22,661 nt of DNA, from IMG/VR virus record IMGVR_UViG_2703718836_000001. One strand, 5' to 3'. The translations under genes and the position numbers were made by a program. Positions 10,188-22,255 of this stretch are shown here, piece after piece; position 1 is the first letter of the stretch; each line of letters starts with the position of its first letter. Source of the DNA: a virus. Lineage: Duplodnaviria > Heunggongvirae > Uroviricota > Caudoviricetes. The notes below the pieces were generated by a model. It did not search any database, was not told the origin of the DNA, and worked only from the letters and a program-made list of their open reading frames with translations.

Positions 10188-10690
10188 CTGTGTCGTCGCT
10201 CCGGCTTCAGTGATTTACGCAATTCCCGCGCCAGAAAATAGCGTGTCCAGCTGCGGTTCTTTTCAAGCGTTTCCACCATGAAGTTATTACGTGGAGCCAG
10301 TCGCCAGCCGCTGCCACCGGATGCACCACGATGATGGCTGCGACGACGCTTTGCCCCTCGCCTCACGCCATAGAACAAAAAAGCCGGATAAAAATCACCG
10401 GTGATACGGCGGTTTCCCTCTCCATTACGCTGGTTAGGGGCTATACGTGCCATAAAACCAGGGCGATGTTTACTGGCTCTGGGTACCATGTAACCAATCG
10501 AACGAGCCAGGCGTCCGGTCTGATAACCGGGGTTTTCACCCGGTGCCGACCGCGCACGGCGCATCACCAGCCGACGGGCATCACGCATATGACGCTGCCC
10601 AATCGTGACAAACGCCCGCCGGACACGGGCGCGGTTAAAGCGCATCTCGGCGGGCTGCTGAACATCAACGTGAAAAAAGGGAGTCGCCAT
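10184..10690 (-). CDS. Head-tail joining / tail completion protein (HK97 gp10-like)
   Basis: 168 aa, Arg-rich, contains the TGRLARSI motif characteristic of the gp10-like family. Confidence 0.55.
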   Translation of the reverse strand: MATPFFHVDVQQPAEMRFNRARVRRAFVTIGQRHMRDARRLVMRRARSAPGENPGYQTGRLARSIGYMVPRASKHRPGFMARIAPNQRNGEGNRRITGDFYPAFLFYGVRRGAKRRRSHHRGASGGSGWRLAPRNNFMVETLEKNRSWTRYFLARELRKSLKPERRHR

Positions 10691-11075
10691 TGCTGCCTCC
10701 GTGACTCTGCCTACATTCGCCCAGCTCCGTACACTCCAGCAGCAGAAAGCGCCGCGCCCCGTTCAGATCGCGCTGACGTTTCACCCGGTACACACTGTCA
10801 CCGCAGACCACCTCATAATCAGCGGTGATCCCCCGGCGGTAACGAATGGTGATGTAATGGGTGATGGCGTCCCCGGTCTGCGCGGTTTCCTGCCAGGTGG
10901 TGGCACTGGTCTGGATAACCTTCGCCCATGTCCGGAACGTAACCGGGTATTGAGGCTCCACGCTAAAGTTATCCGCGGGCATATCCACCCGCAGGCGGAT
11001 CAGGACGCGTTTATTCAGTTCACCGGGGTCCGGCAGAATGTAGGTTGCGCTGGTCTGCGCCTGACGAATTTTCAT
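10665..11075 (-). CDS. Head-tail adaptor / head closure protein (HK97 gp7-like)
   Basis: 136 aa; position after the gp6-like connector; pattern ...THYITIRYRRGI... typical of the family. Confidence 0.6.
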   Translation of the reverse strand: MKIRQAQTSATYILPDPGELNKRVLIRLRVDMPADNFSVEPQYPVTFRTWAKVIQTSATTWQETAQTGDAITHYITIRYRRGITADYEVVCGDSVYRVKRQRDLNGARRFLLLECTELGECRQSHGGSNGDSLFSR

Positions 11076-17672: not shown

Positions 17673-17710
17673 TACGCAGGGCATAAAAACTCAATATTGA
17701 TACTATGAAT

Positions 17711-17941
17711 CTATTCCAAATCCCAACGTGGAATATTTATTATCTTACCAGGAGTTAAGGAAAATTTGGCTTTCTTCAATATCTCAACATTAGCATCATC
17801 AGGAATCACTAAGAAGTACGAATAGTGCATTTCTCCAGAATTCCCATGATTCTCCTGAATATCATCTTCGCTAACTCCCGACGCTTCAAGCTCATCAACT
17901 GTGAGTCCTAAATAATCAGCTAGCTTTTGTATATCAATCAT
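17711..17941 (-). CDS. Hypothetical small acidic protein (orphan, AT-rich)
   Basis: 76 aa, about 15 Asp/Glu; ATG at 17941 with GAGGTG RBS 4 nt upstream; followed by its own terminator. Confidence 0.5.
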   Translation of the reverse strand: MIDIQKLADYLGLTVDELEASGVSEDDIQENHGNSGEMHYSYFLVIPDDANVEILKKAKFSLTPGKIINIPRWDLE

Positions 17942-18240
17942 TAATCACCTCACATATCAACGATGAGGCATCATCATCACACACTCTAGCAAAAGCTTCA
18001 ACTTATTGTTATTATTAAAATAATTCTATACAAATTACATCTAATGTATATCCTATGATACGATAGATGCGAATATTAATGACAAACAACCATCGTATTT
18101 CTCTGAAAAATGGCAAGTATCACTCATTATTCCCCATGCATCTATGTACTCTGTTCATGGTCAAGCCATAACTATATTTAATGCAAGAATACGGAAAGTT
18201 AAACAAATAAACGTTGATACACTAACATTCCACAAACTAG

Positions 18241-18534
18241 TTATACTAATGAAGTAGGCAATTCTTCCTCTGAAATTCCCAATACTCTCCTATCGGCCCG
18301 CAATTTTGCTATAGCGCACACTTCACTATAAGATGGTGCGGAGTTCTCAGGATAAAGTACATACTCAAAATGCGGCGGAGGATTGAATATTAAAACTGAA
18401 TACCCAGCTTCTTGAAGGATATTTTGGACGATTGAATAATAAGGTCTACGCTCATCAAACCAATAACATCCATTCCTTTCTATTGACACGATTGCTTTTT
18501 TTGCGTGCTTCTTATAAACCCATGCCTTATCCAT
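18241..18534 (-). CDS. Hypothetical protein (orphan, AT-rich)
   Basis: 97-aa ORF; weak RBS; two CTACGTA motifs just upstream; no family recognised. Confidence 0.4.
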   Translation of the reverse strand: MDKAWVYKKHAKKAIVSIERNGCYWFDERRPYYSIVQNILQEAGYSVLIFNPPPHFEYVLYPENSAPSYSEVCAIAKLRADRRVLGISEEELPTSLV

Positions 18535-18682
18535 ATCCTGTCAAAAATCTCTCTACGTAATTGAACAATAACACTACGTAGTAGTCATACACCAGAATAT
18601 CTAACATATCAATCCAGCAACATTTAATTATTTTAACTTAATATGAAAAAGTCTTCAGTGATTATAATTTCACACCTATATA

Positions 18683-18973
18683 TCAATTCAGTAACTTTTC
18701 AGAGCCTGTGGCCAGTCTTTGGACACGCTGTTGTTGGACAATAGCTCGAATATGAGACTTGTCCGTATTACATTGCCCTAATGCAGATAACAAGCTCGCA
18801 TTTAAGTTGAGACTTGCACCATACGTCAGAGGGTCTGGTATGAGCGGTATAGGTGTTTCAGAAATCAAACTAGTTGGTAGTGGTGTAACCGGAGTGCTCA
18901 CGTAAACTGTCCGCGTACTTCCGCAACCGATCAGCAGCGGCAGCAGGCACAGGACGTGAAGCACAATCATCAT
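18683..18973 (-). CDS. Rz1-like o-spanin (outer-membrane lipoprotein)
   Basis: From the internal Met of ORF 18683..19141: MMIVLHVLCLLPLLIGCGS... (hydrophobic signal plus lipobox-like LIGC), Pro-rich mature part; starts inside the Rz gene in another frame. Exact start uncertain (a TTG two codons upstream is possible). Confidence 0.55.
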   Translation of the reverse strand: MMIVLHVLCLLPLLIGCGSTRTVYVSTPVTPLPTSLISETPIPLIPDPLTYGASLNLNASLLSALGQCNTDKSHIRAIVQQQRVQRLATGSEKLLN

Positions 18974-19250
18974 CCGCAATAGCCATTTTGATATCTTCCT
19001 GGGTTCTCTGTGACTCCAGTGCGATCTGCTGTTTTGCATGCTGGTTAGCCTCCAGAACTGTATTGAAGATTTGTAGTGATTGCAGGACGTTATTGGTAAT
19101 GGCTGTTGCTGATTCAGCATTTCGTACAGCCTCATCAGCACGTTTCTTTTCGTGCTGATATTTGCTGTAGTAGTGGTTGGCAGACCAGATGAAAGAACCG
19201 ATGACAGTAAAGATGAATGCAGAGATAGCCAGCTTATAGCTCAACTTCAT
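18870..19250 (-). CDS. Rz-like i-spanin
   Basis: 126 aa; N-terminal TM segment LAISAFIFTVIGSFIW then helical periplasmic domain; immediately downstream of the endolysin. Confidence 0.7.
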   Translation of the reverse strand: MKLSYKLAISAFIFTVIGSFIWSANHYYSKYQHEKKRADEAVRNAESATAITNNVLQSLQIFNTVLEANQHAKQQIALESQRTQEDIKMAIADDDCASRPVPAAAADRLRKYADSLREHSGYTTTN

Positions 19251-19710
19251 TTACCACCCCACCAGCCTCTTTAAACCGGGAAATCAGGTCACCGATTTTA
19301 TGTTCATACTGACCGTAACCTGCACCAGGTAACGACGCCCAGATATTGCTGCAACGATCGATAGCCTGACGAATATCGCCGCGATCAATCATCGGTAAAG
19401 CGCCACGCTCTTTAATCTGCTGCAATGCCACAGCATCCTGGTTTTTGGGAGAGAAGTCTTTCAGAGCAAGCTGCTTACGGTAGGCATCCCACCAGCGTGA
19501 AAGAAGCTGATAACGTCCGGCGGCTGTTGATTTGAGTTTGGGGTTTAGCGTGACAAGTTTGCGAGGGTGATCAGAGTAATCAGTAAACAGTTCACCGCCA
19601 ACAATAACATCATAACCGTGATTACGTGTCGGTTGTCGCCCGTTATCCGTTCCTTCTGACCATGCCACCATATCGAGGAAAGCTTTACGCTGGGAATTTA
19701 GTACCTGCAT
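19234..19710 (-). CDS. R: Endolysin, lambda R-like lytic transglycosylase
   Basis: 158 aa; QRKAFLDM.AWSEGTDNGRQ.TRNHGYDVIVGGELFTDYSDHPRKLVTLNPKLKST matches lambda R almost residue for residue as I recall it; AAGGAG RBS 6 nt upstream of the ATG. Confidence 0.9.
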   Translation of the reverse strand: MQVLNSQRKAFLDMVAWSEGTDNGRQPTRNHGYDVIVGGELFTDYSDHPRKLVTLNPKLKSTAAGRYQLLSRWWDAYRKQLALKDFSPKNQDAVALQQIKERGALPMIDRGDIRQAIDRCSNIWASLPGAGYGQYEHKIGDLISRFKEAGGVVNEVEL

Positions 19711-19713
19711 AAA

Positions 19714-20049
19714 TTACTCCTTAGAGCCACTAAACTTATTACCGATTACTCGCATTGCAGCTCCACGAATGGCATCAACACCGATCAGCCCAACGCCACC
19801 ACCAATGGCAACAGAAAGCGATTTAGGCCATCCGACATACTCAAGCGCGGATGCAAAAGTCAGCGTCAGAGCACCACAGAGCAAAATCTCGAGCGTTTTT
19901 CGCTTCCAGCCACCACCTCCGCCAAAATAGGCGATACGCAAACCAGCCATAACGATCGACATAATCACTGCCCCCAGCGGGGTGTCTCCACGCCACCAGC
20001 TCTGGAACAACTCCAGCCAGTCCGGCCAAGTATTTGGGTTATGAGGCAT
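19714..20049 (-). CDS. Holin
   Basis: 111 aa with about three hydrophobic segments and a charged C-terminus; directly upstream of the endolysin. Confidence 0.7.
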   Translation of the reverse strand: MPHNPNTWPDWLELFQSWWRGDTPLGAVIMSIVMAGLRIAYFGGGGGWKRKTLEILLCGALTLTFASALEYVGWPKSLSVAIGGGVGLIGVDAIRGAAMRVIGNKFSGSKE

Positions 20050-20093: not shown

Positions 20094-20122
20094 GAAATAA
20101 AAAGGCCACCCGAAGGCAGCCT
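20094..20122 (-). terminator. Intrinsic terminator after the ATPase moron
   Basis: Minus-strand RNA AGGCUGCC-UUCG-GGUGGCCU (8-bp stem with two G-U wobbles, UUCG tetraloop) then UUUUUAUUU, 23 nt after the ATPase stop. The wobble pairs become C-A on the plus strand, so it is strand-specific. Confidence 0.55.
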
Positions 20123-20145
20123 GATTTAATTATTCACATTAATCG

Positions 20146-21537
20146 TCACTTAATAGGATTTGGTTTTATGTCGTCAAGCCAGTCGTTATCACCTCTTAGC
20201 TTGGCTACTCGTCCTTCAACATTAGTTAACGGTTTATAAGCAGAGTATTTGCCTATAGCCCTAGCAGAATGCTCTCCAGCAACACGATAATTTTGGAAGT
20301 CCAACTCAAGTCCATGCTGCTCCGCTCTCATTCGAATATAGCCACGAAGCATGTTTTCTCTAAATCGAAACCAAGATGGACGATTCCCTAAAGCAGGGAT
20401 GATGATGCATCCAAATGTCGGTTTCTTCAATGCATTGAACTTTCGCTCAAACGTGGATTTATCTAAAGGTGTTACATCAAGCGATTTGCAAATTTTAACG
20501 TACGATTCTGATATATGAGTCTTATGTCTGGTCAAATCAGCCATATCGGACATAGCCCAAAGAATATGCTTATATGACTCATCACGTCCCTCTGTTGCAT
20601 CCGTGTAACTTTGCCTTAAAGTTTCCGAGACTGAATCAATTGCATCATTTAACCCTTTAATGAAAAGGTTGTAGTCAACAGAGCTGTATTCACGTATTGA
20701 GCTTTGACATGTTAAAAGGATTTTTTCACAAATAAGATGAATGTAGTTCGGGAACCCGTCACTAAGACCCGCAATTTTATAGCGGACAGAATCATCGACA
20801 GTCAGGCCAAACTCATCGAAAGCATTATCAATTATTTGAAAACGACCATTCCATGGTAAACTATCGAGATGTACCTGATGTATTTGTCGCTCACTTGATT
20901 TATGCCCTCCGATTAAAGTAACGAGAGAATCACCAATCCCCGTAAAAATTAATTTTACTTCACACGCCTGATCACCAAGTTGCTTAATGAGTGATCCAAA
21001 CTTTTGTCGTTCTTCATCAGAGTCAATTTGGTCAAACTCATCGATAACTATATAAGGAATCTTTGAGTGAACTTTAGTTAAAAATTGCAACGCCCGAACG
21101 GCTGCAGAAACTGAGTCAATTTTCAGTTCTGGATAATTATATTTTTGATTTTGACCAGCATTGATACCACCAATTCCAGCCACATTTAAGCCAAAGCTCC
21201 ATCCCTGTGTATCGATTTTCTTATCCTGAGGTGTGCCTCGCAAAATAATGTCATTCATGACACTTGAAAAAGTGGATTCTTTCTCGCAGCCAACCAAAAT
21301 AGGTTCAGCATCTTCCTGCAGCTTAAAAGCAACAGTTTGCGCTAAGGATGTCTTTCCTACTCCGCGATCACCATAAATGAAAGCATGCCGACCTGTAGCA
21401 TAAAGCGCCAATTCGAGATCGGTTACATGTTTTTCACGTCCAAATAACAGTTCCATAGAAACAACTGGACCCGTTGGTCGCAAAACTTTATGCAGTTTAT
21501 GCATAAAGTCTCGCAAAGAAAGACCTCCACAGAGCAT
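20146..21537 (-). CDS. P-loop NTPase, AAA+/ATPase_2 (Arch_ATPase)-like N-terminal domain with uncharacterised C-terminal half
   Basis: 463 aa; Walker A GDRGVGKTS preceded by LLFGREKHV, Walker B YIVIDEFDQ, sensor-1-like LIFTG. AGGAGA RBS 6 nt upstream of the ATG. AT-rich (one hand-counted 60-nt stretch about 37% GC, against about 65% on a sampled stretch of the sheath gene). Confidence 0.8.
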   Translation of the reverse strand: MLCGGLSLRDFMHKLHKVLRPTGPVVSMELLFGREKHVTDLELALYATGRHAFIYGDRGVGKTSLAQTVAFKLQEDAEPILVGCEKESTFSSVMNDIILRGTPQDKKIDTQGWSFGLNVAGIGGINAGQNQKYNYPELKIDSVSAAVRALQFLTKVHSKIPYIVIDEFDQIDSDEERQKFGSLIKQLGDQACEVKLIFTGIGDSLVTLIGGHKSSERQIHQVHLDSLPWNGRFQIIDNAFDEFGLTVDDSVRYKIAGLSDGFPNYIHLICEKILLTCQSSIREYSSVDYNLFIKGLNDAIDSVSETLRQSYTDATEGRDESYKHILWAMSDMADLTRHKTHISESYVKICKSLDVTPLDKSTFERKFNALKKPTFGCIIIPALGNRPSWFRFRENMLRGYIRMRAEQHGLELDFQNYRVAGEHSARAIGKYSAYKPLTNVEGRVAKLRGDNDWLDDIKPNPIK

Positions 21538-21559
21538 TTTTATTCTCCTGCATTTTTTT

Positions 21560-21597
21560 CGAAAACTATAACATCATTCTTTTTGGCAAGCCTTTCC
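21560..21597 (-). promoter_or_regulatory. Possible extended -10 promoter for the ATPase moron
   Basis: Minus-strand TGtTATAGT (-10 hexamer at plus 21565-21570) about 28 nt upstream of the ATPase ATG; no good -35. Weak, by-eye call. Confidence 0.25.
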
Positions 21598-21628
21598 TAA
21601 ACGCAAAAACCCGCACAATGGCGGGTTC
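21598..21628 (-). terminator. Intrinsic terminator downstream of Q (tR'-like)
   Basis: Stem AACCCGC / GCGGGTT (21608-21627), 6-nt loop, then UUUUUGCGUUU on the minus strand; lies about 50-80 nt after the Q-like stop, where lambdoid phages place pR'/qut/tR'. Confidence 0.5.
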
Positions 21629-21676
21629 TTACTATTATGTTGCTCAGTTCGCTTTTCGTCCCGAGCTTATCACAAT
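21629..21676 (-). promoter_or_regulatory. Candidate late promoter (pR'-like) / Q-utilisation region
   Basis: Immediately downstream of the Q-like gene; contains a CATAAT -10-like hexamer and TTGTGA overlapping the Q stop; elements not confidently assigned. Confidence 0.3.
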
Positions 21677-22255
21677 TCAAGCACTTTCTTGCTCACTTTG
21701 CAATTTAAATCTGTCGCTATTTGTGCCAAACGCATCACATAGTGGAGCGTACAGGAGCGATTCGGCCAAACTTATCCATGTGTCAACTCGGCGGCGACAG
21801 GTAATGAATGCCCAGTCAGGATGTTTAATATGAAGCTCATTGGCCATTTGCAACTTGCTCTTACGCAGACGATACCGGCCAACAATCACACCGTATAGAG
21901 AACGGTAATCATTATTCATCAGCACCGAGGCGATCACACCGTCAATCTTCAGGCCTTCATCGTCCGAGCAAAACGCCAGACTACTTTTGTTTTTACTGTT
22001 GAGTATTTCGCGCAAATAAGCTTCGAGCTCTGGTTTCGTAATGCCTGACTTTTTCATACGGCGCAGCGCATCGTTGATTGCAGTTTTGGTAATTTTGCTG
22101 GATACAAGCAGTTGGTTAAACATGTTACCGCTAGTCCCTCCACTGATATAAGACCAACGCCCCCACATGCGGAGCTTCCCCTGAACCCAGATACTTTCCA
22201 GAGTACGAAGACGAACCATTTCACCCGTTTTGCCAATTTCAGAAGGATTAATCAT
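21677..22255 (-). CDS. Putative late-gene antiterminator (Q-like)
   Basis: 192 aa; position between the nin-region protein and the late promoter/lysis cassette; LRMWGRW resembles the ERWGAW motif of 21-type Q proteins. Family assignment is tentative. Confidence 0.45.
   Translation of the reverse strand: MINPSEIGKTGEMVRLRTLESIWVQGKLRMWGRWSYISGGTSGNMFNQLLVSSKITKTAINDALRRMKKSGITKPELEAYLREILNSKNKSSLAFCSDDEGLKIDGVIASVLMNNDYRSLYGVIVGRYRLRKSKLQMANELHIKHPDWAFITCRRRVDTWISLAESLLYAPLCDAFGTNSDRFKLQSEQESA

Follow-up and report, generated by a model that had tools for sequence, protein, structure and literature searches.

A standalone P-loop ATPase at the ORC/STAND border in the Q-to-holin cargo slot of a lambdoid prophage, a candidate single-protein defence cassette

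The described P-loop proteins closest in fold to the protein reported here are the ATPase_2 proteins, the Orc1/Cdc6 initiators, and the STAND proteins (signal transduction ATPases that have numerous domains), which include Avs, bNACHT, nSTAND, and NLR/Apaf-1/CED-4. TnsC, MuB, and BREX BrxC are DNA-bound AAA+ oligomers, and they need partners (TnsAB/TniQ, MuA, and BrxB/PglZ/PglX, respectively). In lambdoid phages, late-slot cargo such as Stx, DNA methyltransferases, bor/iss, and phi80 Tai/Ati occupies a variable position bounded by conserved late genes and terminators. The phi80 Tai/Ati genes are a defence/counter-defence pair just upstream of the packaging module, and that module is transcribed in the Q-controlled late operon (PMC11364771). 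We analysed a window of 22,661 nucleotides (IMG/VR record IMGVR_UViG_2703718836_000001), which is the late half of a lambdoid-type Escherichia coli prophage with every gene on the minus strand. It contains a standalone ATPase coding sequence of 463 aa (20146..21537, minus), classified in PHROG 6841 (phrog_6841, function unassigned there) and named "ATP-binding protein" at NCBI (WP_021562676). It is moderately probable that this ATPase is an autonomous accessory cassette, or moron, of the prophage and that it acts as a single protein in the exclusion of, or defence against, competing phages or mobile DNA.

The ATPase gene is real and strongly constrained. It has a defined architecture, stands alone, is variably present, and moves between mobile elements into cargo slots. 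Expression in lysogeny, oligomerisation, a target, and a defence phenotype are plausible, the defence role by association. We read the protein as defensive because of the neighbours kept by its family and because of the phi80 Tai/Ati precedent.

The slot is bounded upstream by a Q-like late antiterminator of the DUF1133 type (21677..22255, minus), which matches Pfam DUF1133 at 2.3e-89 and Phage_antitermQ at 2.9e-8 and belongs to PHROG 753, "anti-termination protein Q-like". The downstream boundary is a lambda-family holin (19714..20049, minus; Pfam Phage_holin_3_1 2.6e-27; PHROG 126). The initial annotation of this DNA had placed the 463-aa open reading frame (ORF) exactly between a Q-like antiterminator and a holin, and the profile searches agree. 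The Q-to-holin interval contains no partner gene; its gaps of 96 and 139 bp contain only terminators and a promoter-like element. The copy in E. coli DA33137 is 99.8% identical and has the same NCBI annotation.

The Q-to-holin interval is a hypervariable cargo slot, in which the ATPase gene is variably present between conserved phage genes. Among complete E. coli genomes, 56 of 5426 (~1%) carry the gene, some of them annotated as sequence type ST131, and more than 1000 have a related holin without it. Three such prophages share the holin, endolysin, and terminase and carry other cargo in the slot; all have different Q genes. Two of the three contain two hypothetical genes and a truncated DNA methyltransferase, and the third contains an NYN-domain gene and a DNA methyltransferase. 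Thus, the comparison of related prophages bears out the proposal that this is a variable cargo position. The ATPase has cassette exchange at conserved junctions in common with the known late-slot cargo, but the protein itself is unrelated to any of it.

One junction can be located. An intrinsic terminator with a UUCG loop, AGGCUGCC-UUCG-GGUGGCCU followed by a U-run, lies between the ATPase gene and the holin gene (20095..20122, minus; -13.1 kcal/mol, z -2.8). In the alignment, the methyltransferase-carrying prophages match the window base for base between GTGGCCTTTTTATTTCC (window 20109) and the holin, and only the 5' arm of the hairpin differs. Because the 3' arm and T-run are common to the backbone while the 5' arm differs, the cassette junction falls inside the hairpin. 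The hairpin and U-run had been described as the gene's own terminator; they are present, but the ATPase gene has the terminator only in part to itself, as the 3' arm and T-run are common backbone. In two other phage backbones, the ATPase gene is likewise followed by a similar terminator. The 3' arm, T-run, and holin leader were also seen to be identical across prophages with unrelated cargo (upstream of the holin in loci L009 and L011). The terminator may act as a recombination linker between cargo cassettes.

Several expression signals are found upstream of the gene. The ribosome-binding site AGGAGA (21544..21549, minus) is six bases ahead of the ATG, and GGAGA is kept in relatives. The tR'-like intrinsic terminator (21600..21627, minus; -18.6 kcal/mol, z -4.9) has the form AACCCGC-loop-GCGGGUU followed by a U-run, and it is kept in relatives having a DUF1133 Q. 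Both signals had been noted before and were found at these positions. A PR'-like late promoter, TTGGCA-16 nt-TAAATT (21702..21729, minus), lies within the 3' end of the Q gene; it comes from a consensus scan, in which promoter-like sites were not enriched over shuffles, and we call it PR'-like from its position and from the organisation of lambda PR'. Downstream of tR', the extended -10-like element TGTTATAGT (21565..21573, minus) is a candidate autonomous promoter. The sequence from tR' to the ATG varies among relatives apart from this element; TGnTATAGT, or TGATAGAAT in a different backbone, is observed ~30 bp ahead of the ATG in seven of eight relatives. TGnTATAGT has the form of an extended -10 promoter and may be active as one, in which case Q-independent expression in the lysogen would be possible.

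The gene is downstream of PR'/tR', so during induction Q-modified polymerase should read it too, ahead of any other gene. This position agrees with the main rival explanation, in which the ATPase, encoded at the head of the Q-dependent late operon, benefits the phage in the lytic cycle of the prophage itself. Such a late accessory function might be counter-defence, interference with satellites or co-resident prophages, or the protection or organisation of replicating or packaged DNA. We consider it rather unlikely. The conserved promoter-like element after tR' argues against it, and known anti-defence proteins are mostly small. In its favour, one carrier prophage has an Acb2/Tad1-like anti-defence gene in an accessory slot nearby.

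The gene order in other phages bears on both readings. Q, ATPase, and holin follow each other with a DUF1133 Q in the window and in loci L016 and L017. The Q is of the PF06323 type in Yersinia, with two different lysis cassettes downstream, and is a Q-like protein of PHROG 79 in nine viral contigs; the ATPases of these nine share 31-33% identity with the query. In Enterobacter (L015), the ATPase gene follows a 201-aa protein without a family match. The recurrence of this order with four different Q-type proteins, at 31-100% identity of the ATPase, is expected if the gene serves late functions. Other phages show different positions. In a clade of metagenomic viral contigs, the ATPase gene is between the endolysin and the integrase. 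In the Gordonia phage Cashline, the homologue is between the tail genes and the integrase, and in Vibrio and Photobacterium prophages, homologues lie near the early-right replication/nin genes. In the Mycobacterium phage Kevin1 (L002), the homologue gp30 is an orpham in the lysin-to-integrase slot of the central variable region. It is co-oriented with the integrase and repressor, not with lytic genes, which does not fit a late function. The annotators of Kevin1 flagged gp30 as a possible prophage-mediated defence gene, and in cluster N phages the central variable region is a tested slot for prophage-mediated defence. Kevin1 gp31, a HicB-like antitoxin by annotation, is immediately ahead of gp30 on the same strand (L002 4545-6200), and both are orphams. 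The two genes may represent a lineage-specific two-gene arrangement.

The family is large. A profile search of 1.84 billion representatives yielded 4976 proteins with E<=1e-3, of which 957 reach E<=1e-30. The best 150 representatives are nearly all 410-470 aa long and match end to end; shorter entries cover only part of the profile. None of these 150 is fused to another domain, and the sole longer protein (576 aa) has no extra Pfam domain. Hosts include Enterobacterales, Vibrionales, Pseudomonas, Burkholderiales, many Alphaproteobacteria, Planctomycetota, and Bacteroidota, in addition to phages of Mycobacterium and Gordonia.

The neighbours of the homologues were clustered in 80 genomic loci, taking every ORF up to 6 kb away, and in 77 viral loci, taking the flanks retrieved there, which reach 6 kb at most. 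No conserved partner was observed in either set, and no neighbour family is present in more than 13 of the 80 genomic loci, in agreement with the initial annotation, which had pointed out the lack of a partner gene. Recurrent "clusters" overlapping the ATPase gene were rejected as partners; they are antisense shadow ORFs. The commonest neighbour families in the genomic loci are serine recombinases and integrases. A homologue adjoins Gabija in a Pseudomonas island, and another adjoins an SMODS+S_4TM CBASS and HigB in Pseudescherichia. Homologues are also found on a Pectobacterium integrative and conjugative element (ICE) and between two integrases. The nearest flanks were surveyed as 133 ORFs of at least 200 aa. 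Pfam identified nine integrases, five resolvases, one relaxase, and a McrB_N domain among them, and PADLOC identified Ppl, ThsB, PtuB, a DpnII-like restriction enzyme, and two methyltransferases. Homologues in islands and on the ICE, beside Gabija, CBASS, Septu, Thoeris, and restriction-modification genes and without a late operon, argue against a function confined to the lytic cycle and are consistent with defence.

Two local associations were seen in the neighbour survey. In Nitrogeniibacter aestuarii (L012, 2240-9365), the homologue is directly downstream of RtcB, with RtcR and a Band_7 protein in the same locus. A general association with RtcB was rejected, as it is seen in this one locus and none recurs in the 80-locus survey. 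In Planctomycetota (L089-L096), a protein of ~520 aa is encoded ~190 bp upstream on the same strand in five distant loci (26-27% identity) and is absent elsewhere. It may be a clade-specific partner.

The architecture of the protein was derived from an alignment of 49 homologues and from an AlphaFold2 model built on them, which has a predicted local distance difference test (pLDDT) score of 84.8 and a predicted template-modelling (pTM) score of 0.79. The motifs LFGRE (residues 31-35), Walker A GDRGVGKTS (56-64), Walker B VIDEFD (164-169), and LIFTG (196-200), which had been recognised earlier, are invariant or nearly so in the 49 homologues. The N-terminus MLCGGLS is kept among homologues and is followed by a predicted N-terminal helix (aa 8-18). 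The nucleotide-binding domain (aa 30-228; 20854..21450, minus) is supported by the Pfam AAA_16 match (8e-10), by the model, and by conservation. It includes Walker A K62, Walker B D166/E167, and the invariant residues H212, S214, and R217. R217 is just before strand beta5, the arginine-finger position of AAA+ proteins, and would have that role here. A Gly-rich insertion of 41 aa (aa 102-142; 21112..21234, minus) is placed between helix alpha2 and the Walker B strand. It is modelled with low confidence (pLDDT <50 at residues 106-132) and is predicted to be disordered, not helical. It is the fastest-evolving segment, with 49-80% identity between close relatives versus 85-95% overall, and is a candidate specificity loop; the C-terminal tail also evolves fast.

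The model also gives folds to the C-terminal half. The helical lid, or HD1 (aa 229-282; 20692..20853, minus), has the invariant residues R232, G261-x-P263 (G261-F-P263 in the query), and H267. It is followed by a helical subdomain (aa 283-332; 20542..20691, minus) with invariant Y311, A314, and W327. The winged-helix domain (aa 333-410; 20308..20541, minus) is basic, with a net charge of +8 and 15 K/R in 78 residues. Its predicted secondary structure consists of helices at 339-352 and 360-369, a hairpin at 379-392, and a helix at 395-407, and it aligns with the Orc1/Cdc6 and ATPase_2 folds. The C-terminal tail (aa 411-463; 20149..20307, minus) is poorly conserved and mostly disordered (pLDDT 40-66), and for most members the match to the family profile stops around position 415-440. 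The 463-aa protein has neither recognisable sensor repeats nor a recognisable enzymatic effector domain. In the model, the protein is at the border of ORC and STAND proteins, as a predicted bare nucleotide-binding oligomerisation module without sensor repeats or effector.

The structure-based comparison gave the highest values for SSO1545 (PDB 2fna; 18.9) and PABY2304 (PDB 2qen; 18.8), followed by archaeal Orc1/Cdc6 (about 16), TnsC (15), RFC, MuB, and BrxC's N-terminal part (about 14), and plant NLRs (13). Foldseek ranked Cdc6/Orc1 and ORC1 at the top, then RFC, ZAR1/NRC, CED-4, and Apaf-1. No solved bacterial defence protein is closer than these folds. A sequence search of the PDB had no match under E 0.3, and a fold search of a viral structure library returned generic clamp-loader/AAA+ matches alone, with TM-scores below 0.45. 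The protein looks, and would work, most like the ATPase_2 / Orc1-Cdc6 / STAND group.

SSO1545 and PABY2304 have the same three-dimensional architecture as the query, but the sequence identity is only 15-17%, and the query adds the 41-aa insertion, an extra helical subdomain, and the disordered tail. We know of no established function for these two proteins, so the ATPase_2 match names a fold, not a mechanism. The AAA+ base, lid, and C-terminal winged helix of Orc1/Cdc6 are likewise found in the query, although the global TM-scores are only 0.4-0.5. Unlike Orc1/Cdc6, the query is encoded by an accessory, mobile gene for which no origin context was found, and its lid has GxP. Initiators have a characteristic helical insertion in the ATPase core; the insertion of 41 aa in the query is predicted to be disordered. 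The GxP motif in the lid is a STAND signature, while Orc1/Cdc6 lids have a sensor-2 arginine motif. The query shares with STAND NTPases the order of nucleotide-binding domain, GxP helical domain, and winged helix. It also matches ZAR1, NRC, CED-4, and Apaf-1 structurally and shares the prophage/defence-island context. It differs in having no C-terminal repeat sensor (TPR, WD40, LRR, or similar) and no N-terminal effector, and its Walker B is DE followed by xD, unlike the STAND systems compared. A survey of defence STAND proteins analysed sensors of at least 400 aa (10.64898/2026.01.04.697583), and therefore the 463-aa ATPase would fall outside it. In contrast to TnsC, MuB, and BrxC, the query has no conserved partner, and the scans with PADLOC and across relatives revealed no family match of the TnsC/MuB/BrxC type at the sequence level.

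At the level of profiles, the query exceeds the Pfam cut-offs for AAA_16 (39.8 bits versus 32.6) and AAA_22 (30.1 versus 27) and is thus a P-loop AAA+ protein of the AAA_16 family. ATPase_2, nSTAND1 (residues 29-332), NPHP3_N, and NACHT matched below threshold. For ATPase_2 (PF01637), the query scores 24.7 bits against a cut-off of 33.2, while 47 of 49 relatives match at E<1e-3 (best 3.9e-11). For nSTAND1, the query scores 22.4 against 27.1 bits, and again 47 of 49 relatives match (best 1.7e-9). NACHT is also below its cut-off (18.5 versus 26.7). The NCBIfam model TIGR02928 (orc1/cdc6) matches only residues 29-115, at 4.7e-9 and 35.6 bits against a cut-off of 181.3. As the thresholds of ATPase_2, nSTAND1, and TIGR02928 are missed and the "numerous domains" are lacking, the query is not filed as a member of any of these families. 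The ATPase_2/ORC-like resemblance proposed in the initial annotation is thus upheld by the shared fold architecture, but not by the ATPase_2 and TIGR02928 scores.

The fold comparison invites two further explanations. The ATPase could be a nucleotide-switch DNA-binding regulator of phage or host genes, a STAND/ATPase_2-type transcription factor resembling the ATPase modules of MalT or IniR. The AAA_16 model, which the query matches above threshold, is commonly found at the N-terminus of LuxR/MalT-type regulators. The basic winged helix with its charge of +8 and the ATPase_2 proteins as closest folds would also suit a regulator. IniR, a STAND-type regulator, is likewise predicted to have the ATPase fold of the ATPase_2 proteins (PMC5760070). 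Nevertheless, a regulator appears very unlikely, given that there is no ligand-sensing domain and no conserved target operon nearby in the 157 loci, that the gene is variably present, and that the carrier prophage already has Q, cI, and Cro.

The ATPase could instead maintain the element as an ORC-, DnaC-, TnsC-, or MuB-type protein, acting in replication initiation, helicase loading, or target-site selection. We regard this as highly improbable. It would explain the fold likeness to Orc1/Cdc6, TnsC, MuB, and clamp loaders, the weak N-terminal TIGR02928 match (4.7e-9), the location near the early-right genes in Vibrio and Photobacterium prophages, and the frequent recombinases among neighbours. 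However, the near-identical carrier prophage of E. coli DA33137 already has O-like and P replication proteins, and most related prophages do not have the gene and hence replicate without it. The gene follows Q, outside the replication module, and has no conserved transposase partner. The TIGR02928 score of 35.6 is also far from the cut-off of 181.

Known defence families were searched with the PADLOC-DB v2 and NCBIfam 20.0 anti-phage models. There was no full-length match; matches were at the P-loop level only, for the query and across the 49 relatives alike. The best was mad8 (2e-4 over 34 residues around the P-loop), and those of PDC-S01, IetA, and DS41_1 were all >=2e-3. Assignment to the mad8, PDC-S01, IetA, or DS41_1 systems was rejected, as the matches are limited to the P-loop. 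WP_021562676 is not mentioned in the literature searched, nor in the portion of the DefensePredictor supplements covered. The literature searched on ATPase_2/nSTAND1 defence and on the function of SSO1545 and PABY2304 yielded nothing useful. The initial annotation had proposed a single-gene anti-phage ATPase. The context is consistent with that proposal, but no experimental or family-level link to known defence was found.

The base composition of the ATPase gene differs from that of its flanks, as expected of a moron. Its GC content is 0.400, and its GC content at third codon positions (GC3) is 0.319, while the four adjacent genes have a GC of 0.46-0.53 and a GC3 of 0.43-0.51 (Q 0.459/0.472, holin 0.527/0.509, endolysin 0.484/0.434) and the structural region has a GC of 0.558. 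The AT-richness claimed at first sight is thus confirmed by the codon and GC calculation. The codons of the window gene were compared with those of its relatives in L100, L102, L105, and L017. Relatives at 92-95% protein identity are 78-81% identical in DNA and only 47-53% identical at third codon positions; the synonymous divergence (dS) is saturated, and dN/dS is about 0.01-0.03. GC is 0.40 and GC3 is 0.30-0.34 in all compared relatives, whatever the GC of the surrounding locus (0.47-0.53). Because the AT-richness persists across saturated synonymous divergence, the low GC is a maintained property of an old and strongly constrained gene. AT-richness as a mark of recent import was rejected on the same grounds. 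Of the proposed horizontal acquisition as a moron, the variable slot and deviant composition stand, while recent import is unsupported. The unusually strong purifying selection together with the maintained AT-richness might reflect selection on expression or silencing. Strong purifying selection would also suit a machine-like role in the lytic cycle.

Several observations weigh against defence by this ATPase. The family has no member with a known phenotype, Kevin1 gp30 being a flagged candidate, and the known defence models match the P-loop only. The apparent enrichment of defence genes near the family (at least 6 of the 133 flanking ORFs) is no more than suggestive, and many flanking genes are housekeeping genes at island borders. 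Since the gene comes right behind Q in four Q contexts, its late, Q-dependent expression could instead serve the phage's own cycle. The very strong purifying selection is unusual for an arms-race sensor, though the insertion loop and the tail evolve faster. For a protein without an effector domain, any blocking or killing step is speculative.

For a defensive ATPase, no effector was recognised, and therefore the most economical mechanism would be ATP-dependent assembly on a target, each step of which is put forward here as a proposal. In the lysogen, the extended -10 promoter past tR' would drive transcription of the gene, and upon induction Q-modified polymerase would transcribe it as well. 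The ATP-bound protein would oligomerise on its target. This might be invading DNA, contacted by the basic winged helix, with comparable behaviour on DNA in Orc1/Cdc6, TnsC, MuB, and BrxC, or else a phage protein, contacted by the variable Gly-rich loop or by the tail. The result would be a block of replication or of some other DNA transaction by occupancy or sequestration, not by enzymatic killing. The strict form of this proposal, that a bare NTPase module without sensor, effector, or partner is a complete immune system by ATP-driven assembly on phage DNA or protein, is unlikely.

The ATPase is a candidate for an NTPase-switch protein of mobile-element conflict that is stripped to the switch; it can be tested, but has yet to be demonstrated as a system. 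A defensive family would amount to a widespread one-gene system missed by current defence catalogues, with ~1000 clusters at 50% identity across Proteobacteria, Planctomycetota, Bacteroidota, and actinophages. It would also raise the question of how a STAND/ORC-like switch protects without a sensor or effector domain. Immunity by assembly only, if true, would be a new mechanistic class of single-protein defence and a view of the ancestral STAND/ORC switch before the gain of sensor and effector. Should its role not be defence, the family still represents a conserved ATPase, under strong constraint and without a known role, in the late region of temperate phages. In addition, the Q-to-holin interval is documented here as a cassette-exchange hotspot with a junction inside a common terminator, and the same family fills the equivalent lysin-to-integrase slot in unrelated phages.

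From downstream to upstream, the window contains the structural genes, a P27-family terminase gene, an HNH gene, an AT-rich gap, Rz and Rz1, the endolysin gene, the holin gene, the ATPase ORF, the Q-like gene, and a gene for a DUF968 protein. The endolysin belongs to GH24 (19234..19710, minus) and is encoded just downstream of the holin, followed by Rz. Rfam and tRNA scans of the window gave no matches.

Other accessory genes were observed in carrier prophages. In L016, where the ATPase is 76% identical to the query, a protein with an Acb2/Tad1-hairpin domain (the anti-CBASS/anti-Thoeris sponge fold) is encoded after the lysis cassette (10498-10779). In the Edwardsiella ictaluri prophage (L004/L005, 5570-7122), a HipA_2 and DUF3037 pair is located between the cI-like repressor and the ATPase homologue, with insertion sequence (IS) elements nearby. 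This pair is another accessory cluster in the immunity-integrase region.

A second AT-rich island is found in the window between Rz and the HNH/terminase genes (17700-18700, GC 0.34-0.39). It contains orf76 (17711-17941, minus; phrog_31861, unknown function) and orf97 (18241-18534, minus; no family match). Elsewhere, the same slot contains a DUF2441 protein gene (E. coli DA33137), iss/bor-like genes (two other prophages), or a gene for a 168-aa hypothetical protein (KMi012). In phi80, the Tai/Ati pair has a location of the same kind as this island, "upstream of the packaging module" (PMC11364771).

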